Part shown: piece by piece, positions 20,434 through 36,300 of the stretch
Layout: every line of letters begins with the position of its first letter
Numbering within the stretch: position 1 is the stretch's first letter
Origin: an uncultured Flavobacteriaceae bacterium
GTDB lineage: Bacteria; Bacteroidota; Bacteroidia; Flavobacteriales; Flavobacteriaceae
Assembly: GCA_947488435.1 (NCBI GenBank)
Contig: CANKZG010000001.1
Location: forward strand, 734,308-798,307
Length of the DNA: 64,000 bases
Reading direction: 5' to 3'
Translations under genes and position numbers: made by a program
The notes under the pieces: model-generated
What the model was told of the DNA's origin: nothing
Seen by the model: only the letters and a program-made list of their open reading frames with translations
The model's database searches: none

Positions 20434-21047
20434 TATAATGTATTTAGTTCATTGTACAAATTTGCTCTTGCCTGTTTTTCAAAAGTGGATTGAAAACCCT
20501 TAGTTTGATAAATTGTGTTCTTGTCTAAAAAGTGATGAAGTACTTTCTTTCGTCCTTTACGATACATAATACCGGGAATTTTAGCATACTCTTTTCTAAT
20601 CTTCAGAGCATAATCTTGGTATACCTCTTCGGACTGTCCTAAAATTGCTAAATCAAAGTCTATTAACAATTTCTCATCATTCGATTTGCCATTATGGTGT
20701 TTCGTACAAAGAATAAGTGCTTCAATTCGTTGAATTCCATCTACATCAAATCCAATATCTTGTAATACCTGATTGGCTTTTATTGCACTTTTCTCCTCGT
20801 TATCCTTTTTCCAAATACTATAGACAAAATCATGATAGTAAATAGCTAAAAGCATCTCTTCAGTATTTTCGATATCATCTTTGAACTTATCGAAATAGCC
20901 ATAGAGTTCGGTAAGGTGATCTAGATTGTGGTATTTTCGAAACTTTTGTCCATAAGCGCCAGCTAGTTCATTCCATAAAGCGGCAACTTCATTTTCCGTT
21001 GGTACATATTTAGAGAAAATCTTGGCGTGTCTTTCTTTTAAGTCCAT
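20433..21047 (-). CDS. HD-domain metal-dependent phosphohydrolase (putative RNA-end-processing enzyme)
   Basis: 204 aa; H...LDH...YYHD motif pattern (YHNLDHLTELY, AIYYHDFVY) consistent with an HD fold. Confidence 0.45.
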   Translation of the reverse strand: MDLKERHAKIFSKYVPTENEVAALWNELAGAYGQKFRKYHNLDHLTELYGYFDKFKDDIENTEEMLLAIYYHDFVYSIWKKDNEEKSAIKANQVLQDIGFDVDGIQRIEALILCTKHHNGKSNDEKLLIDFDLAILGQSEEVYQDYALKIRKEYAKIPGIMYRKGRKKVLHHFLDKNTIYQTKGFQSTFEKQARANLYNELNTL

Positions 21048-21083
21048 AGTGTATTTGACTTAAAATTACAAGAACTCAACTAA

Positions 21084-21104
21084 CTACGCAAAATAATTGC
21101 GTAG
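21084..21104. promoter_or_regulatory. perfect 7-7 palindrome CTACGCA-aaataat-TGCGTAG in the divergent HD-WYL / NTase-rtcB promoter region (copy 1 of 3)
   Basis: Read directly from the sequence; arms are exact reverse complements; see copies at 22930 and 30414. Confidence 0.45.
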
Positions 21105-21136
21105 TACATCATCAAATTTGTATCATAATTTTAGAA

Positions 21137-21874
21137 ATGATGAAAAGTAAACTTAAAAATCTAGCAACCGACAAGAAAGTAGACATACTGTTTGCTTGTG
21201 AATCTGGAAGTAGGGCCTGGGACTTTGCTTCCCCAGATAGTGATTTTGATGTTAGATTCGTATATACACATCCAATAGACTGGTATTTGTCAATCTCGGA
21301 AAAACAAGATACCATCGATATAATGGATGGTGATTTTGATGCAGTCGGTTGGGAACTCAGAAAGAAGCTACGCTTACTTAAAAAGTCGAACGTACCTGCA
21401 TTGGAGCATTTATTTTCACCTATAATTTATATTGAAGAAAGTTCATCCATTAAGGAACTGCGAGCGATAGCGAAAGATTGCTTTTCTCCTGTAGCTTGTA
21501 TGTATCACTATTTAAGTATGAGCAAAAAATATGAAGAAAAACTGACTGGTGAAACTGTAAAACTAAAGAGTTTGTTTTATGCATTGCGAACAGCTTTGGC
21601 GGGCAAGTGGATACTTGAACACAATACGATGCCACCTGTTGTTTTTAGCAAGATGTTATCTCTTATAAAAAGGGATGAGGCTGACGAAATAAGACACTTG
21701 ATGACTATAAAATCGGAGAATAACGAAAGTTATTTACATTCCAGAAATGAGAAAGTCGTAAACCTTATAGCAAGTGTTTTAGTTGTTAATGAAAAGTTTG
21801 CAAAATCGCTTTCGGGTGGGAAACCTGATACTGATAGAATAGATAGTTTTTTATATAACACTTTGACCAAATGA
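21137..21874 (+). CDS. DNA-polymerase-beta-superfamily nucleotidyltransferase, most likely the RtcB-associated PF10127 (RlaP-like) family
   Basis: 245 aa; GSRAWDFASPDSDFDVRF = G[SG]-x9-13-DxD nucleotidyltransferase motif. Confidence 0.6.
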   Translation: MMKSKLKNLATDKKVDILFACESGSRAWDFASPDSDFDVRFVYTHPIDWYLSISEKQDTIDIMDGDFDAVGWELRKKLRLLKKSNVPALEHLFSPIIYIEESSSIKELRAIAKDCFSPVACMYHYLSMSKKYEEKLTGETVKLKSLFYALRTALAGKWILEHNTMPPVVFSKMLSLIKRDEADEIRHLMTIKSENNESYLHSRNEKVVNLIASVLVVNEKFAKSLSGGKPDTDRIDSFLYNTLTK

Positions 21875-22923
21875 AAACAATAGAAGAACTAAAAGCTTCA
21901 GGAAATATCATATTTGAATGTATTAGCGGTAGTAGAGCATACGGACTCGCTACCGCTTCTTCTGATACCGATATTCGTGGAGTTTTTGTACTGCCAAAAG
22001 AAAAGTATTATTCATTGGAATATGTAGGTCAAATAAATAATGTCACGAACGATATTGTTTATTATGAACTCAAAAAGTTCATAGAACTTCTTTCAAAAAA
22101 CAACCCTAACATTCTTGAATTGTTAAGTGTTCCTGAAGACTGCATACTCTCAAAGCATCCGCTATTCGATAAAGTCAAGTCTGAGTACTTTCTTTCAAGA
22201 TTGTGCAAAGACACCTTTGCGAATTACGCTTTTACCCAAATAAAAAAGGCAAGAGGATTGAAGAAAAAAATAGTTAATCCTGTTGAAAAAGAACGAAAAT
22301 ATGTTACTGACTTTTGTTTTGTTCGAAAAGAAAAGGGCGCTATGCCTTTGAATACTTTTTTAGAAAATGAAGGTTTCGAAGTGGACCATTGTGGATTGGC
22401 TAAAATAAGTCACATGAAAGATTGTTACAATCTCTTCTACAACCCTTCTATGAAGTATAGTGGCGTTGCAAGAGAAAATGCGAATGAAGTCTGCCTTAGT
22501 TCTATTCCAAAATCGGAAGTGCCAGCGGCTATTTTATATTTCAATCGAGATGGTTATTCATCCTATTGTAAAAAGTATAAAGAGTATTGGTCTTGGGTAG
22601 AAAAGAGAAATGATGAACGTTACAAGAGTAATATCTCACATAGCAAGAACTACGATGCTAAAAACATGATGCACACTTTTCGTCTTTTACATATGGCCAA
22701 AGAAATAGGGGCTGATAATAAAATTATGGTAAAAAGACCAGACCGAGATTTTCTGCTAGCTGTAAAAAATGCTGAATTCGAATATGAAGAGTTGGTAGAA
22801 AGAGCTGAAAAGTTAAAATCAGAATTGGAGGTTACATATGAAAAAGCTGATTTAATGGAACGCCCAGACTTGGATATAATAAATGAACTATTGGTTGAAA
22901 TAAGAGCTCAATTCTACGAATAA
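21871..22923 (+). CDS. second PF10127-like nucleotidyltransferase (paralog; ATGA overlap with upstream gene)
   Basis: 350 aa; ISGSRAYGLATASSDTDIRGVFVLP motif; extra C-terminal helical domain. Confidence 0.6.
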   Translation: MKTIEELKASGNIIFECISGSRAYGLATASSDTDIRGVFVLPKEKYYSLEYVGQINNVTNDIVYYELKKFIELLSKNNPNILELLSVPEDCILSKHPLFDKVKSEYFLSRLCKDTFANYAFTQIKKARGLKKKIVNPVEKERKYVTDFCFVRKEKGAMPLNTFLENEGFEVDHCGLAKISHMKDCYNLFYNPSMKYSGVARENANEVCLSSIPKSEVPAAILYFNRDGYSSYCKKYKEYWSWVEKRNDERYKSNISHSKNYDAKNMMHTFRLLHMAKEIGADNKIMVKRPDRDFLLAVKNAEFEYEELVERAEKLKSELEVTYEKADLMERPDLDIINELLVEIRAQFYE

Positions 22924-22929
22924 ATTTTA

Positions 22930-22950
22930 CTACGCAAAATAATTGCGCAC
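22930..22950. promoter_or_regulatory. palindrome copy 2 (CTACGCA-aaataat-TGCGCAC, slightly degenerate) between NTase-2 and rtcB
   Basis: 19/21 identical to the copy at 21084. Confidence 0.35.
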
Positions 22951-23040
22951 ATGAGTCGCAAGTTTGTACCGGAATCATAAAGAAGCCGGTTCGCCGACTT
23001 CATGTAGTGCCCCGTCGAACGTTGGAGTCGGTGGGGCTAA

Positions 23041-24908
<1,868 letters not shown>

Positions 24909-25058
24909 AATTATTCTCATATTTGCAACTGGATAAATAAATATAACAAGAGAAAATAGTAAAATATGCCAGATTATTTAAATCACATACCGGACGCTAA
25001 GAAGCTAGGATTGCATCGAATTGATGGGTAGACACTATTGAGAAAACGATACATTACT

Positions 25059-25088
25059 AGAGCGTCCAAGAAATTAGGCGCTTTTTTT
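25059..25088 (+). terminator. rho-independent terminator after the rtcB operon
   Basis: AGAGCGTCC-aagaaatta-GGCGCT followed by TTTTTTTT; homologous to the terminator at 28484. Confidence 0.5.
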
Positions 25089-25264
25089 TATATACATTTT
25101 TTAGAGAATTCTCAAAATTCTAAAAGAATGCTATTTGAAAGCTAAGCATTTGAAAAACAGCAAATTGATGAATTATGCTGCTATCTGTTAAACAACGGAC
25201 CAGGATACTTATGTTTTGATTTTATTATAACTAATTGATAATCAGTAATTTAAATTATATTTTC

Positions 25265-25295
25265 TTGTGTAATCCAAAAATCCGTTTTAGCTTTG
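25265..25295 (+). promoter_or_regulatory. Bacteroidetes sigmaA-type promoter (-33 TTG ... -7 TAgcTTTG), cassette A
   Basis: TTG at 25265-25267, 20-nt spacer, TAGCTTTG at 25288-25295; the whole block is duplicated at 28701-28731. Confidence 0.45.
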
Positions 25296-25299
25296 CATC

Positions 25300-25474
25300 G
25301 CAATACAGCAACAAAATTTATTAACTGAAGTATATATGACTTTTTCAAACACATATCAGAATACACTAAAAGCACCAGGTGCTTTATTAGTGTCGCTTCA
25401 GGACTTCTATAATACATAAAGCTACTATAGTTAATGATAGAAAGTCCGAAGCCCTAAAGTTTCGGACTTTTTTA
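25300..25474 (+). ncRNA. candidate leader / small RNA A (~170 nt) ending in a terminator-like hairpin upstream of rtcB2-prfH
   Basis: Promoter-to-hairpin unit; hairpin AGTCCGAA-gccctaaagt-TTCGGACT + TTTTT at 25443-25474; no ORF; 5' ~80 nt homologous to cassette B. Confidence 0.35.
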
Positions 25475-25576
25475 TGCTCTAATTTTTAGTGACACATCTT
25501 TCCGAAACATTTTATCAAATCAAGTATTGCTCTTCCATTTTTGGAACAGCCGTACTATTCCTTAAAATGAAATCTC

Positions 25577-26968
25577 ATGGGAAAGAAATTAAGCGGAAAG
25601 GACCTAATCAAATTGGGTTTTCCAAAGAACAATAGTATCAATATTACATTAGGTCAAATCAATAGATACCATAAGCGAAAAAATAAAGAGCAGGTATTGA
25701 TGGAAGCTAAAAAAGTATTGTTGCATCCTGAGGACTATCAAGGTGATGGGGTTTGGGGTAAGATAGCAGAAAGCTTGTTAGATCCAGTTGTGGTCAAAAA
25801 ACAAGTGCTGAATTCGGCAAGAGCACCTTTCCAAATCTATGGCGAGAACGAAATAGAGGAGCAAGCAAAATACCAATTGTATGATGCTTTAAAACTTCCG
25901 ATTTCTGTTGCTGGGGCTTTGATGCCCGATGCCCATAGTGGTTATGGCTTGCCTATCGGGGGTGTTTTGGCTACTAAGAATGCGGTGATTCCATATGGAG
26001 TTGGTGTTGATATCGGTTGTCGCATGTGTTTGACTATTTATCCGATTCCGGTTTCTTACCTCAAAGGAAAGAAACATCAATTGGCAAATATGCTCTCGGA
26101 GCATACCAAGTTCGGAATGCGGGAAACCCATAAGATAAAGCATGACCACGAAATCTTTGAGCGCGATGAATTTAAAAATATTCCGCTGATAAAAAGATTA
26201 AAGGATAAAGCGTACAAGCAATTGGGAACCTCAGGTGGTGGAAATCACTTTGTAGAATTCGGAAAGGTCACTATTACAGATGACGAGAACGAATGGGGGT
26301 TGAAATTGGGCGAATATCTAGGTGTGCTTTCCCATAGTGGTTCAAGAGGATTAGGTGCAAACATTGCAAAACATTACACCTATTTGGCAACAAAGCAATG
26401 TCCGTTACCCAAACATGTGCAGCATTTGGCATGGTTGGATTTGAATACCCATGACGGACAAGAATATTGGTTAGCTATGAATCTAGCAGGTGATTATGCA
26501 AAAGCATGTCACGATGATATTCACGCAAGACTAGCGAAACTTTTGGGTACAAAACCAGTAGTTAAAATAGATAACCATCACAATTTTGCTTGGAAACAAG
26601 AGGTAAATGGTGCCGAGTGTATTGTGCATAGAAAGGGAGCAACTCCCGCCGCTAAAGGCGAGTTGGGAATTATTCCTGGGTCAATGACAGCATCGGGTTA
26701 CATCGTAAAAGGTTTGGGCAATACAGAGAGTTTAAACTCTGCTTCCCATGGTGCTGGACGGCTTTTTTCAAGACGAAAGTGTAAAGAAACGTTTACACGA
26801 AGCGAAATTAAAAAGCAACTAGACTCAAATGAGGTAACACTAATTGGTGGAGGAATTGACGAAGCACCCATGGCCTACAAAAACATTGAAAAGGTCATGG
26901 CAAATCAACAAGAATTGGTTGAAGTACTCGGAACCTTTACACCCAAAATAGTACGAATGGATAAATAA
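25577..26968 (+). CDS. rtcB: RtcB-family RNA ligase (paralog 2, RtcB2-like, paired with prfH)
   Basis: 463 aa; DAHSGYGLPIGG, GGGNHFVEFG, SHSGSRGLG, NHHNFAW, SHGAGRLFS. Confidence 0.85.
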   Translation: MGKKLSGKDLIKLGFPKNNSINITLGQINRYHKRKNKEQVLMEAKKVLLHPEDYQGDGVWGKIAESLLDPVVVKKQVLNSARAPFQIYGENEIEEQAKYQLYDALKLPISVAGALMPDAHSGYGLPIGGVLATKNAVIPYGVGVDIGCRMCLTIYPIPVSYLKGKKHQLANMLSEHTKFGMRETHKIKHDHEIFERDEFKNIPLIKRLKDKAYKQLGTSGGGNHFVEFGKVTITDDENEWGLKLGEYLGVLSHSGSRGLGANIAKHYTYLATKQCPLPKHVQHLAWLDLNTHDGQEYWLAMNLAGDYAKACHDDIHARLAKLLGTKPVVKIDNHHNFAWKQEVNGAECIVHRKGATPAAKGELGIIPGSMTASGYIVKGLGNTESLNSASHGAGRLFSRRKCKETFTRSEIKKQLDSNEVTLIGGGIDEAPMAYKNIEKVMANQQELVEVLGTFTPKIVRMDK

Positions 26969-27060
26969 CAGATAGTAGTTAGCGACGGTATTTATAAAGC
27001 ATATTGAAAACCTAAGATTATTGGAATACCAACGCTAGCTACTTCTTTTAAAGAAATAAA

Positions 27061-27753
27061 ATGGAAAAGATAATTCAAATAACAACAGGTAGAGGCCCAG
27101 CGGAATGTAGCTGGGTCGTTGCCAAAGTACTCAAGCGATTTTTGGAAGAGACCAAATCGAGAGGATTTAAACATAGTATCCTCCATCGAGAAACAGGAAG
27201 CCAAAACGGGACAGTACAATCGGTGACTATCCGCTTGACAGGAAAAAATATGGAAGCATTTTTAGCAACTTGGTTGGGTACTATTCAGTGGATAGGCGTT
27301 TCAACATTTCGAAAATACCATAAACGAAAGAATTGGTTTATCGGGGCTTTCGAATTGAAACAAACGCAAACTACGAAAGTGGATGAGCGAGATATTTCGT
27401 TTCAAACCATGCGGAGCACCGGTCCTGGTGGCCAGAATATCAACAAGATTAATTCTGCTGTTCGGGCAATTCATACCCCCACAGGAGTACAAGTAGTTGC
27501 GATGGATAGTCGTTCTCAACATCAAAACAAAAAACTAGCAATAGCTCGGTTAAAAGAAAAAGTAAATGAAGCTAACCTAGAGCAGTTAAAGGGAAGCATG
27601 ACAGATCAATGGGAGAACCATTTGAATCTGCAACGAGGAAATCCGGTCCGAGTTTTTAAGGGTACAGATTTCAAACATCAAAAAGTGGATAAAAGTTATA
27701 AACCAAAACGGCAAAAGCTAAAAAACGATTTCAAACATCAAAAATGGGACTGA
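27061..27753 (+). CDS. prfH: peptide chain release factor H (RF-H)
   Basis: 230 aa class-I release-factor GGQ-domain protein (STGPGGQNINK) lacking a full codon-recognition domain; immediately downstream of an RtcB paralog as in the E. coli rtcB2-prfH pair. Confidence 0.75.
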   Translation: MEKIIQITTGRGPAECSWVVAKVLKRFLEETKSRGFKHSILHRETGSQNGTVQSVTIRLTGKNMEAFLATWLGTIQWIGVSTFRKYHKRKNWFIGAFELKQTQTTKVDERDISFQTMRSTGPGGQNINKINSAVRAIHTPTGVQVVAMDSRSQHQNKKLAIARLKEKVNEANLEQLKGSMTDQWENHLNLQRGNPVRVFKGTDFKHQKVDKSYKPKRQKLKNDFKHQKWD

Positions 27754-28298
27754 CAATAGCCGATACTTATTACTTAAAGGCACGAGCAGCAATGGGAGGT
27801 TTTTGCCCTGATTGGGACGAAGTTTGTGAATCACTGAACTACGCCCTGTCTTACGATGAAAATCATTGTGCCTCCCTTTGTCTTTTAGGTAAAGTTTATG
27901 CAGGAAATTTGAATCAGTATACTGAAGCTTTCGATTGCTTTGACAAAGTAATTGCAATTGACAGTTACTATATGGATGTCTATCCTGCCTACGCAAAATA
28001 TCTTATTTGGGCCGATGAAATTGAAAGAGCAACTAAACTAATTGCTTTTGCTCTTACCATAAAAGGGATATCAAAAGGAAGTTTATTTTGGCTTTCCGCG
28101 TATGCGTCTGAAACCAAGGAAGCTTATAAAGATGCTCTGAAACATCTTAACAAAGCTAAGAAGTATTCCTATAATGACGATTACTTTTCTTTCATTGAAG
28201 ATGAAGAAAATAGAATTAAAAAGAAATTGAAATTGGATAAATCCAAAGTAAAAAAGAAGAAATCTTCATCTAAAAAAAAGAAGAAAAAGAATAAATAG
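27744..28298 (+). CDS. TPR-like protein with C-terminal poly-lysine tail
   Basis: 184 aa; helical repeats; ends KKKLKLDKSKVKKKKSSSKKKKKKNK encoded by A-rich tracts; overlaps prfH stop by 10 nt. Confidence 0.5.
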   Translation: MGLTIADTYYLKARAAMGGFCPDWDEVCESLNYALSYDENHCASLCLLGKVYAGNLNQYTEAFDCFDKVIAIDSYYMDVYPAYAKYLIWADEIERATKLIAFALTIKGISKGSLFWLSAYASETKEAYKDALKHLNKAKKYSYNDDYFSFIEDEENRIKKKLKLDKSKVKKKKSSSKKKKKKNK

Positions 28299-28483
28299 TA
28301 GTAACACAACGTTTAAAAATAACATCTTTGTAAAACAAATGACACCGAGAAAGTTACATATCATCCAACAAATAGAGCTTTGGCTCTGCGATTTTCGCTC
28401 AGAATATAGTGAGCGAAACGGGCGCTATGTGACTTTATCCAACAGTTGATTCTATGTAAATCACTTATTAAACGATAAAATGA

Positions 28484-28514
28484 AAGCGTCCAATTACAAT
28501 TGGGCGCTTTTTTT
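28484..28514 (+). terminator. rho-independent terminator after the prfH operon
   Basis: AAGCGTCCAATT-ac-AATTGGGCGCTT followed by TTTTTTT. Confidence 0.55.
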
Positions 28515-28700
28515 GTGGAATTTTTTAAAGTAAAATGCGAAAAGTAGTAAACGAATAAAATAGCGTAGTTGAAACAGAAAACAATTGGTAGACAGACAGT
28601 TGTAATAAATGTTTAAAGTCCGCAATATGACGGACAGGGATTCTATTGTTCATATTTTAATTTAACTATCTGATTATCAATAAATTAAATTAATTTTTTC

Positions 28701-28731
28701 TTGTATAATTTAAAAATCGTTTTCATCTTTG
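28701..28731 (+). promoter_or_regulatory. Bacteroidetes-type promoter, cassette B (-33 TTG ... CATCTTTG)
   Basis: Same spacing (20 nt) and flanks as cassette A; sits upstream of the tRNA array. Confidence 0.4.
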
Positions 28732-28737
28732 CACCGT

Positions 28738-28948
28738 CATAAATTATAAACCCATTACCAATGGAATCTTTAAAAAGACATATACAATTATTGGAACTAC
28801 ATCTCTGTTCGCCGAAATGGTTTGAACGGTTTTATAGTGATCAACTGTCCATTTGTAAACAAAGGAGAAATACGTGTATCATGTGTTGACGTCATAGACA
28901 CCATTCACATATGTACAGAGCATCTCCGATAAAGAGGTGCTTTTTTTA
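28738..28948 (+). ncRNA. candidate leader / small RNA B (~200 nt) ending in a hairpin + T7 tract 22 nt before the first tRNA
   Basis: Hairpin GCATCTC-cgataaa-GAGGTGC + TTTTTTT at 28920-28948; 5' part homologous to leader A. Confidence 0.35.
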
Positions 28949-28969
28949 TGCGATTATTTTTTGAAAAAA

Positions 28970-29057
28970 GGAAGAGCAAGCCAAAGGGCGGTGGCCACAC
29001 TCTTGAAAAGTGTTCGGAGTAACCAGTCTCGTGTGGGTTCGACTCCCACCTCTTCCG
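28970..29057 (+). tRNA. tRNA-Ser(TGA), class II
   Basis: Hand-folded: acceptor GGAAGAG/CTCTTCC, anticodon arm ACACT-CTTGAAA-AGTGT, long variable arm, T-arm GTGGG-TTCGACT-CCCAC, G73; 88 nt. Confidence 0.8.
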
Positions 29058-29062
29058 CAACT

Positions 29063-29149
29063 GGAGGGTAGGCAAATACTGGTTTGTTGCGCTCGCCTGC
29101 TAAGCAAGTCTACCATAAGGTAGTGAAGGTTCAATTCCTTTGCCCTCCG
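29063..29149 (+). tRNA. tRNA-Ser(GCT), class II; the only array member with an encoded CCA
   Basis: Acceptor GGAGGGT/GCCCTCC (one G-U), loop CTGCTAA, variable-arm hairpin CTACC-ataa-GGTAG, G73 then CCA; one C-A mismatch in anticodon stem. Confidence 0.7.
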
Positions 29150-29156
29150 CCAAATT

Positions 29157-29229
29157 GACAAGGTGGCTGAATAGTTAAGGCAATGGTCTGCAAAATCATT
29201 TTTTATGAGTTCGAATCTCATCCTTGTCT
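29157..29229 (+). tRNA. tRNA-Cys(GCA)
   Basis: 73 nt; acceptor GACAAGG/CCTTGTC, loop CTGCAAA, T-arm ATGAG-TTCGAAT-CTCAT, U73 (Cys identity). Confidence 0.8.
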
Positions 29230-29240
29230 CTAAATATTAT

Positions 29241-29323
29241 GGAAGTATTGAGCAATTGGCTGGCTCGCTTGACTGTAAATCAGGTTCAGAAATGACATGT
29301 AGGTTCGAGTCCTGCTGCTTCCA
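29241..29323 (+). tRNA. tRNA-Tyr(GTA), class II
   Basis: Acceptor GGAAGTA/TGCTTCC, anticodon arm CTTGA-CTGTAAA-TCAGG, long variable arm, A73. Confidence 0.75.
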
Positions 29324-29327
29324 CAAC

Positions 29328-29398
29328 GCGTCTGTGGTGTAATGGTAGCATTTGGGTCTCCAAAACCTATGATTGAGGTTCGAATCCTTAAGGACGCG
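29328..29398 (+). tRNA. tRNA-Trp(CCA)
   Basis: Anticodon arm TGGGT-CTCCAAA-ACCTA as in E. coli tRNA-Trp, T-arm TGAGG-TTCGAAT-CCTTA, G73; one mismatch at the acceptor-stem base. Confidence 0.65.
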
Positions 29399-29401
29399 CA
29401 A

Positions 29402-29474
29402 AGTACCGTAGTTCAAAGGCTAGAGCGCCCGACTGTCTATCGGGAAGGTACGGGTTCGAGTCCCGTCGGTACTG
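29402..29474 (+). tRNA. tRNA-Asp(GTC) with unusual U37
   Basis: Acceptor AGTACCG/CGGTACT, anticodon arm CCCGA-CTGTCTA-TCGGG, T-arm ACGGG-TTCGAGT-CCCGT resembles E. coli tRNA-Asp; G73. Confidence 0.65.
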
Positions 29475-29479
29475 CGAAA

Positions 29480-29552
29480 CTGGGAAGATAACGGTGGTTA
29501 GTTTACCCGCTTTGGAAGCGGGAGGTCGCAAGTTCGAATCTTGCTTCCCAGA
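29480..29552 (+). tRNA. tRNA-Pro(TGG)
   Basis: Acceptor CTGGGAA/TTCCCAG, anticodon arm CCCGC-TTTGGAA-GCGGG, T-arm GCAAG-TTCGAAT-CTTGC, A73; only 5 nt after tRNA-Asp. Confidence 0.8.
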
Positions 29553-29614
29553 CGACTTAGTCAAATCAAGTTTACTTGAATTTGATTAGCAAGGAGTAGT
29601 TGTAAGAAAGACGA

Positions 29615-29636
29615 AGTCAATCTTGCTTCTCAGACT
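29615..29636 (+). pseudogene. 3' remnant of tRNA-Pro (T-loop 3' half + acceptor 3' strand), direct repeat of 29531-29552
   Basis: AGTCAATCTTGCTTCTCAGAC vs GTTCGAATCTTGCTTCCCAGAC (17/20). Confidence 0.5.
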
Positions 29637-29639
29637 TTT

Positions 29640-29712
29640 GCTCTGTTCGTATAATGGTTAAGTACGCCTGACTTTCTATCAGGAAATAGGGGTTCGATTC
29701 CCCTACAGAGTA
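29640..29712 (+). tRNA. tRNA-Glu(TTC) with unusual U37
   Basis: Acceptor GCTCTGT/ACAGAGT (G1-U72), D-stem CGTA/TACG, anticodon arm CCTGA-CTTTCTA-TCAGG, T-arm AGGGG-TTCGATT-CCCCT. Confidence 0.65.
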
Positions 29713-29717
29713 CAAAA

Positions 29718-29790
29718 TGAGGTATAACTCAGTTGGTAGAGTACCGTGCTTTTAACACGGGAGTCTTAGGTTCGAGTCCTAATGCCTCAA
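29718..29790 (+). tRNA. tRNA-Lys(TTT)
   Basis: U1-A72 acceptor TGAGGTA/TGCCTCA, D-arm ACTC-AGTTGGTA-GAGT, anticodon arm CCGTG-CTTTTAA-CACGG, A73. Confidence 0.75.
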
Positions 29791-29795
29791 CAATT

Positions 29796-29868
29796 GCAGG
29801 GATGGCGAAATGGCAAACGCAGCTGGTTTAGAACCAGTACTCTGAGAGTTCGAATCTCTCTCCCTGTA
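29796..29868 (+). tRNA. type-I tRNA with Leu anticodon TAG (Leu-like D-arm, variable arm only 5 nt)
   Basis: Acceptor GCAGGGA/TCCCTGT, D-arm GCG-AAATGGCAAA-CGC (Leu-like), anticodon arm GCTGG-TTTAGAA-CCAGT, variable ACTCT, T-arm GAGAG-TTCGAAT-CTCTC, A73. Confidence 0.5.
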
Positions 29869-29875
29869 CTATGAT

Positions 29876-29949
29876 GCCCCACTAGCCCAACCGGCAGAGG
29901 CAAAGGACTTAAAATCCTTAAAGTCCAAGTTCGAATCTTGGGTGGGGTA
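29876..29949 (+). tRNA. type-I tRNA with Leu anticodon TAA (variable arm 5 nt)
   Basis: Anticodon arm AAGGA-CTTAAAA-TCCTT nearly identical to E. coli tRNA-Leu(UAA) arm, but variable region only AAAGT; T-arm CCAAG-TTCGAAT-CTTGG, A73. Confidence 0.5.
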
Positions 29950-29954
29950 CAAAT

Positions 29955-30079
29955 AAGCTTATGGTGTAATGGATAGCACGCAGGATTTAACTCACGCTCT
30001 TTTTACTTGAAATAAGGAGTTCGTGAATGCAGAAAAGCATTTCTAACCCTGAGGTATGAGTTCAAATCTTGTTAGGCTT
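29955..30079 (+). ncRNA. tRNA-like element (125 nt): canonical acceptor/D-arm/T-arm with a ~60-nt insertion in the anticodon region
   Basis: 5' AAGCTTA-TG-GTG..CAC D-arm (11-mer TGGTGTAATGG shared with tRNA-Trp); 3' ATGAG-TTCAAAT-CTTGT T-arm + TAGGCTT acceptor strand pairing 7/7 (one G-U) with the 5' end; split CAGG/CCTG anticodon stem. Confidence 0.3.
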
Positions 30080-30085
30080 GCAAAT

Positions 30086-30157
30086 AGACCCGTGATGTAA
30101 CGGTTAGCATACAAGGTTTTGATCCTTGTTGTAAAGGTTCAAATCCTTTCGGGTCTT
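30086..30157 (+). tRNA. tRNA-Gln(TTG)
   Basis: Acceptor AGACCCG/CGGGTCT 7/7, D-stem ATGT/GCAT, anticodon arm CAAGG-TTTTGAT-CCTTG, T-arm AAAGG-TTCAAAT-CCTTT. Confidence 0.7.
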
Positions 30158-30162
30158 CAAAT

Positions 30163-30236
30163 GGTGTCTCTAGCTTATTTTGGTAAAGCGTCCCACTGTG
30201 AATGGGAAGAACAGGGTTCGAGTCCCCGAGTACACC
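30163..30236 (+). tRNA. tRNA-His(GTG) with encoded G-1 pairing C73
   Basis: Anticodon arm TCCCA-CTGTGAA-TGGGA, D-stem GCTT/AAGC, extra 5' G opposite C73 (His hallmark); two mismatches near the acceptor-stem base. Confidence 0.6.
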
Positions 30237-30242
30237 CAAAAG

Positions 30243-30315
30243 GGAACAGTAGCAAAGATGATCAATGCGGCGGATTGAAGATCCGACGATACAGGTTCGA
30301 GTCCTGTCTGTTCCA
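30243..30315 (+). tRNA. tRNA-Phe(GAA)
   Basis: Acceptor GGAACAG/CTGTTCC 7/7, anticodon arm GCGGA-TTGAAGA-TCCGA, T-arm ACAGG-TTCGAGT-CCTGT, A73. Confidence 0.7.
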
Positions 30316-30319
30316 CAAC

Positions 30320-30392
30320 AGGAGTATAGTTCAATTGGACAGAACGCTGGGCTACGAACCTAGAAATGCGAGTTCGAGTCTTGCTACTCCTA
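30320..30392 (+). tRNA. tRNA-Arg(ACG)
   Basis: Acceptor AGGAGTA/TACTCCT 7/7, D-stem GTTC/GAAC, anticodon arm CTGGG-CTACGAA-CCTAG, T-arm GCGAG-TTCGAGT-CTTGC, A73. Confidence 0.8.
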
Positions 30393-30413
30393 CTAAAACA
30401 AGAGAAATTTTAG

Positions 30414-30434
30414 CTACGCATAATCATTGCGTAA
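30414..30434. promoter_or_regulatory. palindrome copy 3 (CTACGCA-taatcat-TGCGTAA) inside the tRNA array
   Basis: 6-bp arms TACGCA/TGCGTA with 7-nt A/T spacer, same architecture as copies at 21084 and 22930. Confidence 0.35.
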
Positions 30435-30498
30435 TTATGGTTCAATTTTGCCTTGTAATAAAAGCAGTCCTTATAGGGAAAACGGGGCTGTAATAGTT

Positions 30499-30530
30499 CC
30501 CTGCAGCAAATTTAATGCTGCAGGGTTTTG
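30499..30530 (+). terminator. strong rho-independent terminator closing the first tRNA block
   Basis: 9-bp GC-rich stem CCCTGCAGC-aaatttaat-GCTGCAGGG followed by TTTTG. Confidence 0.7.
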
Positions 30531-30536
30531 ATAAAT

Positions 30537-30740
30537 ACCTCTTTAGCTCAAAGGGAAGAGCTGTGGTAAAGGATATTGATCGTAGCCACGGAGTGATTGG
30601 AAGACGTTGTTAGCGGCGTGCCTGCTAATGAATAGAATTTGCAGAAGCACCGAAATGAACAAGATTCAAAATAGGGAAGCGCATTTATAGCCAATCTGTT
30701 CGTTTCGACGAAAGTGCCAGTTCGAATCTGGCAAGAGGTA
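30537..30740 (+). ncRNA. tRNA-like element (204 nt): acceptor stem 7/7, D-arm and T-arm intact, anticodon arm replaced by ~130 nt of structured sequence
   Basis: 5' ACCTCTT-TA-GCTC-aaagggaa-GAGC; 3' GCCAG-TTCGAAT-CTGGC-AAGAGGT-A; interior has several hairpins incl. a UUCG tetraloop (TTCGT-ttcg-ACGAA) but no anticodon stem-loop. Confidence 0.3.
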
Positions 30741-30750
30741 CAAAGTTCAT

Positions 30751-30780
30751 TGAAAAAAAAATTCTGCCTAGGCAGAATTA
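30751..30780 (-). terminator. rho-independent terminator for minus-strand transcripts
   Basis: Plus strand reads AAAAAAAA-ATTCTGCC-tagg-GGCAGAAT, i.e. hairpin followed by U8 on the minus strand. Confidence 0.5.
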
Positions 30781-30920
30781 ACAATATCAAGCTGGTCTTG
30801 TTGGGTGTTTCTGTATAGCACTATTGTGTGAAGCGTTGCCATAGGGTATAATGTTTTCATGTACAACTTGACTTGATGGTTTCGATTGTTCGCCAAAAAA
30901 CGATCACCACTCTGTGAGTC

Positions 30921-31012
30921 ATGGGTTCGAATCCCATCAGTCCCAAATGGGACTGTAGTTCAGTTAGGTTAGAACAACAGACGGATGCGCAGGTTCGACT
31001 CCTGCCAGCGGC
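30921..31012 (+). pseudogene. tRNA debris: T-arm + 3' acceptor (ATGGG-TTCGAAT-CCCAT-CAGTCCC-A) immediately followed by its matching 5' acceptor + D-arm (GGGACTG-TA-GTTC...GAAC) and a second T-arm lacking an anticodon arm
   Basis: Hand-folded; looks like a permuted or tandem-decayed tRNA pair; no complete cloverleaf. Confidence 0.4.
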
Positions 31013-31023
31013 CACTTTTTTTA

Positions 31024-31067
31024 GGCCCTGTAGCTCAGTTGGCTAGAGCACTACACTCATAATGTAG
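31024..31067 (+). pseudogene. 5' two-thirds of a tRNA-Met/Ile2(CAT): acceptor 5' strand, D-arm, anticodon arm; T-arm and 3' end missing
   Basis: GGCCCTG-TA-GCTC-agttggcta-GAGC-A-CTACA-CTCATAA-TGTAG, then no TTCGA T-loop and no CAGGGCC partner. Confidence 0.45.
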
Positions 31068-31450
31068 GTTTCTAAAGCTGACCATCTTTTAAAACTGGTC
31101 TCCAAGCCCTGTTAGGCTTAAAATGACAAAAACCGTAGGTATAAGTCAGTTGGTTTTTCTTCGGATAAATCAACAGTCTTGAAACTACTTTGAAATAGTG
31201 AATTTTTGATGCGAAAGGCAATTTCTTTTTGAATATCCTTCCCTCGGAAAAACCAATAAAAAGTATTGGCAACGTCGACCGAAGCATACCAAAAAAACAA
31301 ATCGTAACGAGCTTCGAAAACCAATATTTCCGTAACGGATAGATGAGTTATAGTTGCGGTTTTTTAAAAGAGAAAAACAAATTAATACTAAATAAGAAAT
31401 CGTTTAACCCGTTCGTCCGTCACTAGACTGGCGGACACAAATTTTAAGTA

Positions 31451-32551
31451 ATGAAAAGAGTAAGAATCAATGCAGGAAGAGTAGGTTTGGTCTTCAAAAG
31501 AGGCGATTACCAAAGAGTAATTACCCAAGGTACACACTGGGTAAGCTTCAGAAATATGGTTAAGGTATATGACCTTACCAAGGCCTTTGTTGCCCCTATA
31601 GCATTAGAAATCTTGCTACAGGACCAGGGCTTGGAAGCTATGTTGCATATCATCGAAGTTAAGGATGCTGAATTGGCTCTAGTTTCTGAAAACGGAAACT
31701 TGAAACAAGTCCTTACTGCTGGTAAGTACGCTTTCTGGAAAGGTCTGATAAACTTCGAGTTCGTTATGGCGGACTTGAGTAAGATCTATATCACTGAAGC
31801 TATCAGCAAAGCAATGTTGAGCCATCCTCAGTTGCGAGCGTATGTTCGTACTTTGGAAGTTGCGGCTTACGAAAAGGCTGTCCTCTTGGTTGATGATGTT
31901 TATGTCAAAACGCTGGAAAGTGGTACCTACCATTTCTGGAAGAACGACATCTCTATCAAAATTGCCAGAGCGGACATGCGTCAATTGCAATTGGAGATTT
32001 CTGGTCAAGAATTGTTGACCAAAGACAAGGCTGCTATTCGTATCAATTTCTATACACAGTATAAAGTTATAGATATCGAGAAGGCTTTGCTAGGCAACAA
32101 AGACTATGAAAAGCAGTTGTATATCGCAATGCAATTAGTATTACGGACCTATATTGGCACCTATACCTTGGATGAGCTTCTAGAACGAAAAGAAAGCATC
32201 GCTGAAGCTGTGTTTGGGGATATCAAAACTGCCGCTACCCAATTGGGTGTTGCAATTTTGAGTTGTGGTATTCGTGATGTTATCCTGACCGGTGAAATGA
32301 AAGATATTATGAACCAGGTTTTGGTTGCTCAAAAGAGAGCTCAAGCGAATATCATTACCCGACGTGAAGAAACTGCGTCTACCAGAAGCTTGCTGAACAC
32401 CGCGAAGTTGATGGAAGACAACGAAATGCTCTACAAACTGAAGGAAATGGAATACGTTGAAAAGATCGCCGAAAAAATCGGTGAGATTACCGTCTCTGGC
32501 AATGGAGGTATGGTAAAACAATTGAAAGAGATTTTCTCAGTCAATAAGTAA
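31451..32551 (+). CDS. SPFH/band-7 (slipin-like) domain protein with extra N-terminal domain
   Basis: 366 aa; C-terminal half has SPFH-like pattern (…VLVAQKRAQANIITRREETAS…). Confidence 0.55.
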   Translation: MKRVRINAGRVGLVFKRGDYQRVITQGTHWVSFRNMVKVYDLTKAFVAPIALEILLQDQGLEAMLHIIEVKDAELALVSENGNLKQVLTAGKYAFWKGLINFEFVMADLSKIYITEAISKAMLSHPQLRAYVRTLEVAAYEKAVLLVDDVYVKTLESGTYHFWKNDISIKIARADMRQLQLEISGQELLTKDKAAIRINFYTQYKVIDIEKALLGNKDYEKQLYIAMQLVLRTYIGTYTLDELLERKESIAEAVFGDIKTAATQLGVAILSCGIRDVILTGEMKDIMNQVLVAQKRAQANIITRREETASTRSLLNTAKLMEDNEMLYKLKEMEYVEKIAEKIGEITVSGNGGMVKQLKEIFSVNK

Positions 32552-32599
32552 ATAGTCAAAATGCACTAACTAAAGTTAGTGCATTTTTTATATGATTAT

Positions 32600-33352
32600 T
32601 TATCGATGCATCCGATCAAGTATTTCCAGCACTTCTGCCTTTTTTCGCACCGAAACGGGAACATGTCCCCCATTTTTAAGCAATAAATAGCCTCCATCTG
32701 TTTTTACATAGGCACTAATGCATTGTAAATTAACTAAATGGCTTTGATGAATACGTAAAAACTCATATTCTTTTAATAACTCTGCGAAGTATTTTAATGT
32801 TTTTGTTACAAAGATTTTTTGTTTATCCTGTAAATGAAATATGGTGTTGTTGCTATCAGATTCACAACGCACAATATCATCCAAGTTTACAATAATGATC
32901 TTGTCCAGTGTATGTAAAGAAATTTTATCGGGCTTTTCTTCAGGTGTAGATAAGGTGTCTTTTAAGATAGCCAAACGTTCTTCCCCAGGTTGTAATTGTT
33001 CTTTAGCTCTGTCAATCGCTTGGGCTAATTCTTCATGAGTATACGGTTTTAAAACATAGTCGATAGCGGCAAATTTAAAGGCCCGAATTGCAAACTCATC
33101 ACTAGCTGTTACAAAAATAATCTTTGATTGTAAATTAGGAACAATCTCTAAAATATCGAAACTAGTTCCATCTCCCAGCATAATGTCTAAAAACAAAATG
33201 TCCGGTTGTTGTTTTCGAAGCAATTTTGAAGCTTCCACAACACTTTGTGCCGTTGCAACAACCTCAATATCAGGATGATTCTGGGCTAAATCGTTCTTCA
33301 AAAGCTGCAAAGCATCGGGAAGGTCTTCTACTAATATTGCTGTTAACTTCAT
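32600..33352 (-). CDS. LytTR-family two-component response regulator
   Basis: 250 aa; CheY-like receiver (DILFLDIMLGDGTSFD) + C-terminal LytTR DNA-binding domain. Confidence 0.85.
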   Translation of the reverse strand: MKLTAILVEDLPDALQLLKNDLAQNHPDIEVVATAQSVVEASKLLRKQQPDILFLDIMLGDGTSFDILEIVPNLQSKIIFVTASDEFAIRAFKFAAIDYVLKPYTHEELAQAIDRAKEQLQPGEERLAILKDTLSTPEEKPDKISLHTLDKIIIVNLDDIVRCESDSNNTIFHLQDKQKIFVTKTLKYFAELLKEYEFLRIHQSHLVNLQCISAYVKTDGGYLLLKNGGHVPVSVRKKAEVLEILDRMHR

Positions 33353-33356
33353 GCTA

Positions 33357-36300
33357 TTAATAATCTGTTTGTAATGGTATTTTAAAGGTAACTTTAGTAC
33401 CTGCTATTGAGCCGTTTTCAGTTGCAAGCTCTTCAATTACTATGGCGTTTTTACCAGATATAGATCGCAGCCGCTCTTGGGTAACTTCCAATGCCATAGA
33501 TTGATGATCCGTTTTCGGTTTCTCCTTTTGAGATTCAAAAATACCTACGCCATTATCGATTACTTCACAATGTAAAAACTTTTCAGTAGTTGAAAAAATA
33601 AGTTTTAAAACGCCTTCACGAGGCCCTTTCCCTATGCCATGCCGAATCGCATTTTCTACAAAAGGCTGAATAAGCATTGGGGGTATTAAAATTTCTTCGC
33701 TATCCATTGCAGTTTCTACTTGCATATCGTAAGTAAAGGGACGGGTGGCCATTAGTTGTTCTACTGCGATATAATGTTTTAACGTTTTGATTTCTTGATC
33801 TAAGGTAATGGTGTCTTTCCTCGAATTATAGAGGGTTTCTCGAAGTAGCGTCGCAAAACTATTAATTGTGCTGTTCATTTTTAATGGATTTCCAGAGCCC
33901 ATTGCTTTTATTCCGTTAAGCACATTAAAAATAAAGTGAGGATTCATTTGTAATCGGAGTGCTTTTTGTTCTAGAGCCAACAGGTGATTCTCTAACTGTA
34001 GTCGTTCTTGCGCACGTTTGTTCTTACGCTTTACCCGTCTAATGTAACGCCAAGTGAACAACAATAACATCAACCCAATAGCACCGAGGACCGAAGCCTG
34101 GAACCACGATTTTTCATACAATGGGGTTTCAATAAAAAAATTAAACTGAATACTATTACTTTCCTCCCATCTAAAATTTCTGGCTTGAGCTGTAAACGAA
34201 TGTGCGCCATAGGTTAGTCCTGCAAAATTTTGCTGATTAATTTCAGACCATGGACTCCACTCATTGTCATTCAATTTAAATCGATATTCAATATCCTTTG
34301 GATGATCCAAATCTATGGCACGGTATCGAAATGTGATCTGTGTTTGATTTGGTTTAAGTTGTAATATTTTTGAACTATTCGTCCACTTCTTTAAGTGCAA
34401 AGAGTCTACTGTTTTATAATCTACCTCAATCTGTTCAAAATACAGTTTGGGTTTTACTGTAGCTTTGACAGTTTCCGAAGCTTGATGTTGTGTGAGCCCA
34501 TAAATAGCTCCAAACCACAAGTTTCCATCAGCATCCATATCCACGGCATTAAGACAGGTTTCTATTCCCAAAAAACCATCATTTTCGCCAAAGTGAAAAA
34601 CGTCGATAATAGTGTTTTCTTGGCTTAAGATAATTTTATCCACGCCACGTTCCGTGCCTACCCAAAGATTCTCATCGGCGTCAAAAATAAGTTGGTAAAC
34701 ATTTTCAGAATAAGGCGATTTATTTCCGTTAAGTTTTCCAAAGCGTTTAAGATCATTTATCGGAGACCACCATATCCCGCTTCCCGAGGTGCCTAAGTAT
34801 AAATTCTCATGATGGAAAAGCAATGTTCCTATGGGGATTTCTTGATCCAACACCTTCCCTAAATCGGTAAGTTTATCGTTTTGAATATATCCCAAATGCC
34901 CTTTTTGAGTTGCATACCAAAGGCGTCCATAAGCGTCTGTTTTCATTTCCCGAATCAGAAGATCTTCCAAACCTTGTTTTTTGTCATAGGTTTTTAAAAC
35001 TTTCAGTGCGCCTTTTGAAGTGTCGTAGGTGAATTTTACAATTCCGCTTGCATAAGTTGCTGCCCACATCACAGAATCTATAGGGTGTATTTTACGAATC
35101 CAATTGGAAGGGAGACCTTTCGCTGTGTCAATAATGTGATCTATGGCTATTGTTTTTTGAATAGTATCTAAGGGAATTGCTTCTGGACTTTCATCCGAAA
35201 TTACAATACTATCGACGATTTTGGTTTCTCGATAAAGAATACCGCGACCATCTGTTCCAGCCCATATATCTCCCTTAGCATCATGTGTGATCGTTTTAAT
35301 TTTAACGCCTTCAAAATAATTATCAATTTCAACCGAATGCAAGCCCAGTGAATCTATTTTTAAAAGTCCTGCCTCAGAATTTGAAGTCCATATATCGGTT
35401 GCTGTAGCATGCACTGCATAGACTCGATCTCCTTTTAAACCAGTATCCTTATCGTAATGCTTAAAGTTGTTTTCGAAATATTTGTAGAACCCACCTCCAG
35501 ATGTGGCAATCCACACATTAGTTCTGGTGTCTGTAATAACCTTGCGAATGTGTTGTACTCCGAGTCCTGCAGAATTATCAAGTCGCTTCTTTTCTTCGTA
35601 GCTTTTAACATCTAGAATTACAATTCCATCATTATCTGTAGACACCCATAATTCGTCTTTAAGGATTGCTAAGTTATTTATTCGCAAGGGTTCCCGAAGT
35701 AAGAGTTCTTGGCGTCCCAATTTTTTATTGAGTACCCAGATTCCATCTGTAAAAGTTGCTGCCAAAAGATGATCCTTGTTAAGGGTAAGGGCCGTAAAAT
35801 TGCCAGCTCCAAGTTTATAAACCTCATCGACTTCCTGCGCCTCGACACTTGCACGCCAAAGTCCTGTATCGGTAGCAATCCAAATCCAATTATTCTCAAA
35901 AATAAGGGCATTAATACGACCATTATCAATTTCCTCATGAAGTAATATACGCCTTAAGTTCCCTGTTTTTTCAAACAAAAATATGCCTTGAGATGTTGCT
36001 AAATAGTATTTGGTGTTATTCTTATAGATTGCATTAATCTGAGGTCCTTGAAGGTTTGAGAAGCCATTTTTATGTTTAATAGACAAGCCTTTTTTTGTGC
36101 CTATAAAAAGACTATCGTTGCTAAAATGAAGTGCATGAATGTAATTTGATAGCAGTCCATTTCTTTCATTAAAAACTTCAAAATCAACCCCATCAAACCG
36201 TGTTATTCCTCCCCCTTGTGTCCCGAGCCATAAGTACCCTATTTCATCTTCAATAATATCATATACCTGAGATTGTGGTAAGCCATCGGTAAGCGTGTAA

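Follow-up and report, generated by a model that had tools for sequence, protein, structure and literature searches.

The window analysed here is a stretch of 64,000 nt from an uncultured Flavobacteriaceae bacterium (contig CANKZG010000001.1, positions 734,308 to 798,307) and, judged by its genes, is chromosomal DNA of a Maribacter-like flavobacterium, its PrfH being 83-92% identical to named Maribacter proteins. It holds an RNA-repair cassette, an array of tRNA genes and a block of non-coding RNAs, and two elements of this region are the subject of this work: element 1 (29955-30080), inside the array, and element 2 (30537-30740), downstream of it. A first-pass annotation had treated both as one kind, that is, tRNA-like elements with intact acceptor, D and T arms and large insertions in place of the anticodon arm; they proved to be of different natures. 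We propose, with a probability of about 0.6 for the two parts taken jointly, that element 1 is a tRNA-Arg gene hit by a mobile element, and that element 2 is a tRNA-mimic RNA linked to the repair cassette. The locus is composed as follows.

19423-28298: RNA-repair cassette as a whole
19423-20433, minus strand (divergent): WYL-domain regulator (Pfam and PHROG scans)
21137-21874 and 21871-22923, same strand as the array: two genes for RlaP nucleotidyltransferase (Pfam, PHROG)
23053-24441, same strand as the array: first RtcB gene (Pfam, PHROG)
25577-26968, same strand as the array: second RtcB gene, RtcB2 (Pfam, PHROG)
27061-27753, same strand as the array: PrfH (Pfam, names of homologues)
27744-28298, same strand as the array: TPR/Lys-rich protein (Pfam, PHROG)
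28630-28736, plus strand: palindrome-bearing promoter/operator-like element of about 107 nt, ahead of the array
28970-30393, plus strand: array of 15 standard tRNAs, which hosts element 1 (ARAGORN, Rfam)
31451-32551, plus strand: Band7/SPFH gene, after the non-coding RNA block, co-occurring with arrays and element 2

A phage origin was considered and rejected: a DNA search of phage records gave generic tRNA matches only, and the flanking genes are chromosomal and of Bacteroidota type. For comparison, 80 related loci were fetched via PrfH alignment, which with the window make 81 sources and a total of 1.62 Mb (individual loci are designated by L and a number). Among the 80 PrfH loci the RtcB-RtcB-PrfH-TPR core is universal, and the array, Band7 and element 2 are added to it as an accessory module; tRNA arrays are found downstream of PrfH in about 25 of them. 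The spacer between cassette and array (28299-28969) is conserved at 94-97% among close relatives. It contains the operator-like element, of which a second copy, 77% identical, lies at 25195-25300 ahead of RtcB2; the palindrome reads CTGATTATCAAT / ATTGATAATCAG, and a Bacteroidetes-type -7 box is also present. The duplicated element is probably a shared operator/promoter, and its two copies suggest common control of the array and RtcB2. The way in which it ties the arrays to RtcB-PrfH suggests a combined "repair plus replace" response to toxins that cut tRNA or rRNA. Other bacterial tRNA arrays, such as the cyanobacterial L-arrays (PMC8421152), are likewise long tandem sets of extra tRNAs, which are expressed under stress and include odd tRNAs and pseudo-tRNAs; unlike them, the array described here is tied physically, and apparently in its regulation, to RtcB-PrfH, and carries tRNA-like non-coding RNAs and loop-targeting insertions.

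The published role of RtcB2-PrfH is the rescue and religation of ribosomes cut by colicin E3, and that of RlaP is the mending of trimmed tRNA halves. Bacterial tRNAs are said to lack introns, a statement also made in the RlaP paper, and RtcB has therefore been assigned to repair only (PMC12776372). Which substrates and partners bacterial RtcB, RlaP and PrfH have in nature is still under study. The PrfH/RtcB/RlaP literature that was searched makes no mention of tRNA arrays or of such RNAs, and no description of either element was found in searches of the literature on PrfH/RtcB with tRNA arrays, on tRNA-like RNAs, on WYL, or on miniature inverted-repeat transposable elements in tRNA loops.

For both elements, folding of the single sequence beats shuffles only mildly (z-scores of -2.05 and -2.78), and the case for each therefore rests on comparison with relatives: element 1 is backed against chance by an uninterrupted orthologous tRNA, and element 2 by strong covariation. 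An Infernal/Rfam scan, which the first-pass annotation had named as a check, was run at the curated gathering thresholds and, over 28500-34500, at E <= 10; it returned no family for either element.

The features that had been noticed in element 1 are all present. The acceptor strands AAGCTTA/TAGGCTT form 7/7 pairs, one of them G-U, the D-arm is almost identical to that of the tRNA-Trp at 29328-29399, the T-arm is in place and the anticodon stem is a split CAGG/CCTG. The idea that the anticodon arm had been replaced did not hold, as the arm is intact and is broken inside its loop, by 54 bp inserted between U33 and U34. The parts of element 1 are the following.

29955-29987, plus strand: 5' exon, with acceptor 5' strand, D-arm, anticodon stem 5' strand, U32 and U33
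29988-30041, plus strand: 54-bp insert, TAACTCACG-[variable hairpin]-GTTCGTGAATGC-AGAAAA-GCATT
30042-30080, plus strand: 3' exon, with anticodon UCU, A37, A38, anticodon stem 3' strand, variable loop, T-arm, acceptor 3' strand and G73

The limits of the insert can be shifted by up to 3 nt, as the ATT at its 3' end is the same as the sequence of the 5' flank. As it stands, element 1 is not called as a tRNA by ARAGORN in standard mode or by Rfam, including at E <= 10. The intron mode of ARAGORN gives tRNA-Arg(tct), 73 nt with a 54-nt intervening sequence, and removal of 29988-30041 in silico gives the same tRNA-Arg(tct) of 73 nt. Moreover, the empty site exists in nature: L001, L002, L004, L008, L010 and L012 have an ordinary tRNA-Arg(tct) here, and the exons of the uninterrupted gene of L001 (12974-13044) are 100% identical to those of element 1. 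Element 1 is thus, on this comparison, the tRNA-Arg(UCU) gene of the array, recently interrupted by a 54-bp non-coding mobile DNA element, and its primary transcript would be unusable as a tRNA unless the insert were removed. Among the explanations first put forward, that of a tRNA gene disrupted by a small element was right for element 1.

A profile built from 13 copies of the 54-bp element (nhmmer, E = 3.8e-11 for the copy in element 1) finds 18 copies in the 1.62 Mb, every one inside array tRNAs. Copies in the tRNA sense always lie in anticodon loops (Arg-UCU, Arg-UCG, Gly-UCC, Gln-UUG), and antisense copies always in T-loops (Cys and Ser, with degenerate ones in genes resembling Phe and Leu tRNAs). 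When the site is read along the strand of the element, insertion falls in every case at position 2^3 of a stem-closed 7-nt loop, N-T^T-C-N-A-(A/C), and every copy is flanked by T^TC(N)A(A/C) or by something very close to it. The coupling of strand and loop follows from this register, which is matched by the antisense T-loop, A-T-T-C-G-A-A, but not by the sense one. As a mere linear sequence the motif is present at about 13,000 places in the 1.62 Mb, none of which is used. The difference between an empty and a filled site is the element itself and nothing more, with no target duplication, and excision in silico regains an ARAGORN tRNA in 11 of the 15 full copies. An extra copy splits the open reading frame (ORF) of a DDE transposase in L098, a viral/prophage-type contig, and removal of 53 nt there restores the reading frame across the junction. 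In viral contigs 23 matches to the insert pattern were seen, of which the copy in L098 is the only full one, and a plasmid collection gave 0 matches.

The copies are 48-55 bp long and contain two hairpins and no terminal inverted repeats; the terminal hairpin AATGC..GCATT has the compensatory variants AATAC/GTATT and AATAT/ATATT. Covariation between the internal GTTCG and the flanks, as would be expected of a guide and its target, was looked for by eye and is not convincing, and a longer version of the element was not seen in the 1.6 Mb searched. Two tRNAs with the element in their anticodon loop (L011, about 14700-14730, and L056, about 15900-15930) have a disrupted T-loop as well; the sequence that disrupts it resembles an inverted 54-bp element, and the same gene may have been hit twice.

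Presence/absence polymorphism, varied host sites, insertion in both orientations and the lack of target site duplications and terminal inverted repeats lead us to conclude, from these comparisons, that the insert is a miniature mobile element acting at the DNA level and targeting stem-loops, and not a classical intron. The hairpin ends and the loop target point to transposition of single-stranded DNA, in which the element would be moved by a hairpin-recognising transposase in the style of IS200/IS605 or REP-RAYT. Indeed, it shares with IS200/IS605-type elements the absence of target duplication and terminal inverted repeats, the end hairpins and the conserved adjoining sequence. The same hairpin-defined ends, short specific adjoining sequence and single-stranded DNA biology link it to the IS200/IS605 PATEs, the REP elements (Y1/HUH) and the IStrons, which are hybrids of transposon and intron; it differs from PATEs and REP elements in its size of only 48-55 bp, in having as target a defined position of a 7-nt hairpin loop and in that its transposase has not been identified, and from IStrons in having no ribozyme. 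Element 1 is a normal tRNA into which a miniature element has inserted, an unclassified one whose structure-specific target is unusual. At 54 bp this mobile element is unusually small, and it seems to recognise a position within the loop of a hairpin; it is of relevance to transposon biology.

The site of insertion raises the question of splicing. Positions 33/34 and the T-loop are sites of introns or of nuclease attack in other systems, and the 54-nt insert and its relatives could be true bacterial tRNA introns, excised by an endonuclease or by self-cleavage, with the halves joined by the neighbouring RtcB as in archaea and eukaryotes. The two RtcB genes and the array have the promoter/operator-like element in common, exact removal gives canonical tRNAs in the 11 of 15 copies mentioned above, exons are intact in several genera with RtcB as neighbour, and both array tRNA-Arg genes of L037 carry the insert with perfect stems. 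Against this, the T-loop copies are inverted, so that their RNA would be the reverse complement, and one copy sits inside a protein-coding ORF (L098); both facts argue for spread at the DNA level with no need of an RNA function. The host tRNAs of L033 and L013 have stem mismatches, no bulge-helix-bulge motif was seen at the junctions or in the fold by inspection (no dedicated search for the motif was made), and no splicing-endonuclease domain was found among the proteins scanned, which are those of the locus. Self-cleaving ribozymes (hammerhead, twister, pistol, hatchet, HDV and others) gave no Rfam match at E <= 10 in either element. We consider this explanation unlikely, although it deserves some weight.

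Two known kinds of tRNA intron are instructive here. The bulge-helix-bulge introns of archaea, including the transposed non-canonical ones of Thermoproteales, are also short related inserts at several tRNA positions (anticodon loop, T-loop), and RtcB joins their exons; in our case the host is bacterial, the motif is not apparent on inspection, no splicing endonuclease was found in the locus and the orientation flips between sites. Group I introns, for example in tRNA-Leu(UAA), likewise interrupt the anticodon loop of bacterial tRNAs, and have a size of at least about 200 nt. The inserts of elements 1 and 2 measure 54 nt and about 90 nt and have no Intron_gpI match in Rfam, and the 54-bp element also occurs inverted in T-loops; the first-pass annotation had rightly set group I introns aside. 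A broader version of the idea, in which the bacteria of this group perform protein-dependent tRNA splicing, with the 54-nt elements and possibly the internal domain of element 2 excised and the halves rejoined by the cassette RtcB, seems doubtful to us. Were it true, the stress-induced tRNA array would become functional only once the repair system is on, bacterial RtcB would have a physiological splicing substrate, and the persistence of a DNA parasite in essential-type genes would be explained. The interrupted tRNA genes beside two RtcB genes make splicing by bacterial RtcB testable.

Element 2 is of another nature. Its 7-bp acceptor, D-arm, T-arm and A73, and its lack of an anticodon loop, were all confirmed, and its layout is as follows.

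30537-30740, plus strand: element 2 as a whole, 204 nt (covariance model R1, 245 bits)
30537-30561, plus strand: acceptor 5' strand (30537-30543), U8, A9 and D-arm (30546-30561) with GG in the D-loop, by covariation
30563-30589, plus strand: hairpin P3, GTGG/CCAC, with a 19-nt loop starting UAAAGGA, by covariation
30595-30696, plus strand: long-range helix P4 (30595-30600 with 30691-30696), enclosing the conserved internal domain, by covariation
30699-30740, plus strand: variable-arm hairpin (30699-30712), T-arm (30716-30732), acceptor 3' strand (30733-30739) and A73 (30740), by covariation

Full-length relatives of 77-96% identity are present in loci of Maribacter, Tamlana, Aquimarina, Tenacibaculum, Flavivirga and Winogradskyella. 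Searching the 81 sources with model R1 gave 15 genomic copies, and a metagenome scan with two invariant blocks as pattern gave 35 loci, marine and soil, all of them full-length matches of 130-247 bits; with one overlap removed the family set holds 49 copies and 44 distinct sequences. RNAalifold on 12 sequences gave 50 pairs, 19 of them with compensatory changes. On the 44 distinct sequences 97.6% of cells are paired, against about 40% in controls with slid partners, and compensatory changes occur at 34 of the 50 pairs, values that none of 500 shuffles reached.

The tRNA-like body is formed by helices 1, 2 and 10, paired at 97.7-100% with compensatory changes, and by the invariant GG and TTCGA. 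In the acceptor, ACCTCTT/AAGAGGT (7 bp), all 6 modelled pairs show compensatory changes; in the D-arm, GCTC/GAGC, pair 12-23 switches between UA and AU in 19 sequences; the T-arm is GCCAG-TTCGAAT-CTGGC, and the variable hairpin is of class-II type. The loop of P3 starts with the family consensus (U/A)AAAAG and is 12-21 nt long across the family. The internal domain, about 90 nt with three hairpins and near-invariant joining strands, comprises a hairpin at 30607-30631, UGC-AGAA-GCA at 30640-30649, a hairpin at 30656-30668 and the invariant blocks TTTGCAGAAGCACCGAA and TAGGGAAGCGCATTTA. Compensatory changes are found at 4 of 6 pairs in P4 and 8 of 10 in P5. The window does have the hairpin with a UUCG loop pointed out earlier; relatives do not conserve that loop. 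Unlike the insert of element 1, which recurs in 18 copies as the first-pass annotation had thought a mobile insertion might, the interior of element 2 is a single-copy, conserved and covarying domain.

Two kinds of variant were seen in other loci. In L126, L119, L138 and L116 a second insertion family of 30-60 nt (GGRC...GCCAGRTG...) occupies the P3 loop, and in L011 (15700-15880) element 2 ends after its first 32 nt, truncated by an insertion sequence of the GGRC... type.

Among the 44 sequences, covariation does not support a conserved anticodon or a 7-nt anticodon loop. The standard mode of ARAGORN skips element 2, and Rfam finds no family for it in the window at the gathering thresholds or at E <= 10; three relatives gave tRNAs only. 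The intron mode of ARAGORN was tried and rejected, as it forces a model on the element in which only 3 pairs of the "anticodon stem" are true ones, and the identities that it assigns are inconsistent. No mimicry of rRNA was found: BLAST and nhmmer against E. coli 16S, 23S and 5S rRNA gave chance-level 10-mers only (AGAAGCACCG = 16S 496-505) and no profile match. No base-pairing targets of the invariant blocks were found elsewhere in the window, and in viral contigs 11 matches to a 17-mer of element 2 are at chance level, with no covariance-model match. We conclude from covariation and distribution that element 2 is a member of a previously undescribed family of structured, tRNA-shaped RNAs of about 200 nt, and the early suggestion of a new class of tRNA-derived non-coding RNA fits element 2.

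Could element 2 be a class-II (Leu-like) tRNA gene, with P4 as anticodon stem and the domain of about 90 nt as a new intron at 33/34 whose removal would leave a working tRNA? P4 is followed by the variable-arm hairpin and the T-arm in class-II geometry, with A73, the five nt before the 3' strand of P4 are UA(G/U/C)AG, and RtcB is close by. However, the would-be anticodon varies in the family (UAG, UAU, UAC), ARAGORN with -i gives a dozen identities across it, positions 32/33 are A and A/U and not Y-U, and an additional hairpin, P3, stands between the D-arm and P4. Furthermore, the "intron" is conserved more than the "exons", no empty-site version was found in 1.6 Mb, and the domain is far below group I size and matches no Rfam intron or ribozyme. 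A small chance is all that we would give to a spliced class-II tRNA.

The linkage to the rescue factor PrfH, the tRNA-like body with its large internal domain and an in-frame UAG conserved after hairpin P5 would suit a miniature RNA of ribosome rescue, akin to transfer-messenger RNA (tmRNA) and working with PrfH. tmRNA likewise has an acceptor/T-arm body, a large structured insertion for the anticodon arm and a link to ribosome rescue; element 2 differs in having no G3-U70 (pair 3-70 is C-G) and no supported tag ORF, in its full D-stem and in its much smaller size (about 200 nt). A coding or tag ORF was examined and discarded, since a stop interrupts the frame in L021 and substitutions are not concentrated at third codon positions. 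ARAGORN (-m) reports no tmRNA, the Rfam tmRNA models do not match element 2, and the element occurs in loci with RtcB and RlaP and no PrfH in view. Such a rescue RNA is very improbable, and neither element is a tmRNA, as the first-pass annotation had already said.

Fragments of tRNAs, truncated or duplicated, do occur in the arrays, as do small insertions of several kinds, and in an array undergoing rearrangement both elements might be tRNA pseudogenes in decay or might show complementarity by chance. The conservation and covariation of element 2 over the 44 distinct sequences from marine and soil sources already contradict this explanation; for element 1, whose exons are identical to those of an intact orthologue, it overlaps with our own reading, that of a gene inactivated by insertion. 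As an account of both elements it is extremely improbable.

Element 2 is always co-oriented with the cassette; its neighbours are tRNA arrays, Band7, WYL, RlaP, RtcB and the TPR gene, and it almost always adjoins such genes, also in loci that have no array. Terminator-like hairpins flank it in the window.

30499-30525, plus strand: terminator-like hairpin with T-run, 7 nt upstream of element 2
30760-30779, minus strand: terminator-like hairpin, just past element 2

Terminators on both strands had been noted at the outset, and our scan found them; the upstream one is missing in the closest relatives. About 60 nt of 30460-30536, between a promoter-like CAATTTTG box and element 2 and including this hairpin, are absent in L012, L008, L005 and L002, and other hairpins of CCCTGC type take its place in L051, L021 and L033.

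In L024, element 2 heads an RtcB-...-RtcB-PrfH-TPR operon that lacks the array, and in L120, L137 and L136 it lies directly between RtcB or WYL and RlaP. Such positions, at the head of an operon or between WYL/RtcB and RlaP (L024, L120, L136, L127, L135, L147), would also suit a cis-acting leader or processing signal, either tRNA-like punctuation or a sensor of the WYL regulator controlling the downstream genes. In the window and in most array loci, on the other hand, element 2 follows the tRNAs, a long way from the nearest start codon, what lies downstream of it differs from locus to locus, and its tRNA-like ends predict excision from the transcript. A cis-acting role is accordingly improbable.

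We rather favour a tRNA-mimic RNA acting in trans. Element 2 would be cut from its transcript by RNase P and RNase Z and would then work as a tRNA mimic, its invariant domain binding a cassette protein or the nuclease that attacks tRNA or rRNA. We propose that it may serve as a cofactor, decoy or damage sentinel, as suggested for YrlA in rsr-rtcBA operons. YrlA (Y RNA, RF02553; rsr-yrlBA-rtcBA operons) is also a non-coding RNA with a tRNA-like module in an RtcB repair operon and has been proposed to be a tRNA mimic or nuclease competitor (PMC4201824, PMC7790460). YrlA, though, has a closed acceptor-like stem and a Ro60-binding helix made up of its two ends, whereas element 2 has open ends of tRNA type and a different internal domain. 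Rfam gave no YrlA match on element 2 at E <= 10, and no Rsr/TROVE-domain protein was found among the neighbour proteins scanned at the locus. Element 2 resembles YrlA in concept and lacks the defining features of tRNAs, tmRNA, YrlA, group I introns and known ribozymes. As a covarying, widely distributed tRNA-like RNA of a repair cassette, it is a candidate cofactor, decoy or sensor.

Several points weigh against this reading of the two elements. For the mobile element, no transposase for it was identified, the DNA covered being loci of 1.62 Mb in total; 54 bp is smaller than known IS200/IS605 derivatives; the restriction to arrays could reflect something besides hairpin targeting; and several interrupted tRNAs have intact exons across genera, which is unexpected for dead genes. 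For element 2, the processing, stability and partner are inferred from sequence, its place at the head of an operon in some loci makes a cis role possible, and in 33 columns its invariance is imposed by the metagenome search pattern.

The region downstream of element 2 contains further RNAs. At 30850-31020 lies a conserved structured RNA, distinct from element 2, with a circularly permuted tRNA-like (YrlA-like) fold: a T-arm, a 7-bp acceptor-like stem closed by a loop of 4-24 nt, a D-arm and a second T-arm. Compensatory changes are seen at 16 of its 34 pairs, and a long-range ACAGA/TCTGT helix covaries by eye. Its Rfam match to YrlA is sub-threshold (38 bits, cut-off 69), and a Ro60/Rsr gene was not seen nearby. 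In L012 (10916-11861; also in L002 and L011) a block of about 950 nt, with no ORF longer than 84 aa and only a weak tRNA fragment in Rfam, separates this RNA from element 2. Further on, 31021-31450 starts with a tRNA(CAU)-like 5' part (Rfam tRNA, 28 bits) and continues for about 350 non-coding nt up to the start codon of Band7; this stretch is 87-92% conserved in at least 6 relatives and could be a non-coding RNA or a long leader.

Some peculiarities of the arrays were also observed. The array tRNA-Leu(UAG) (29796-29869) and tRNA-Leu(UAA) (29876-29950) are 74-75 nt long and have no long variable arm, which is expected of bacterial leucine tRNAs. After tRNA-Pro, at 29554-29639, there is an 82-nt insertion of a different kind from the 54-bp element; it has a hairpin inside, its last 17 nt repeat the 3' end of tRNA-Pro, and L012 and L001 do not have it. 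The tRNA-Leu(UAA) of L001 (12851-12967) carries an unrelated 48-nt insertion at the junction of D-arm and anticodon stem. Elsewhere in the window, positions 42662-53134 of the plus strand form a single ORF of 3490 aa.

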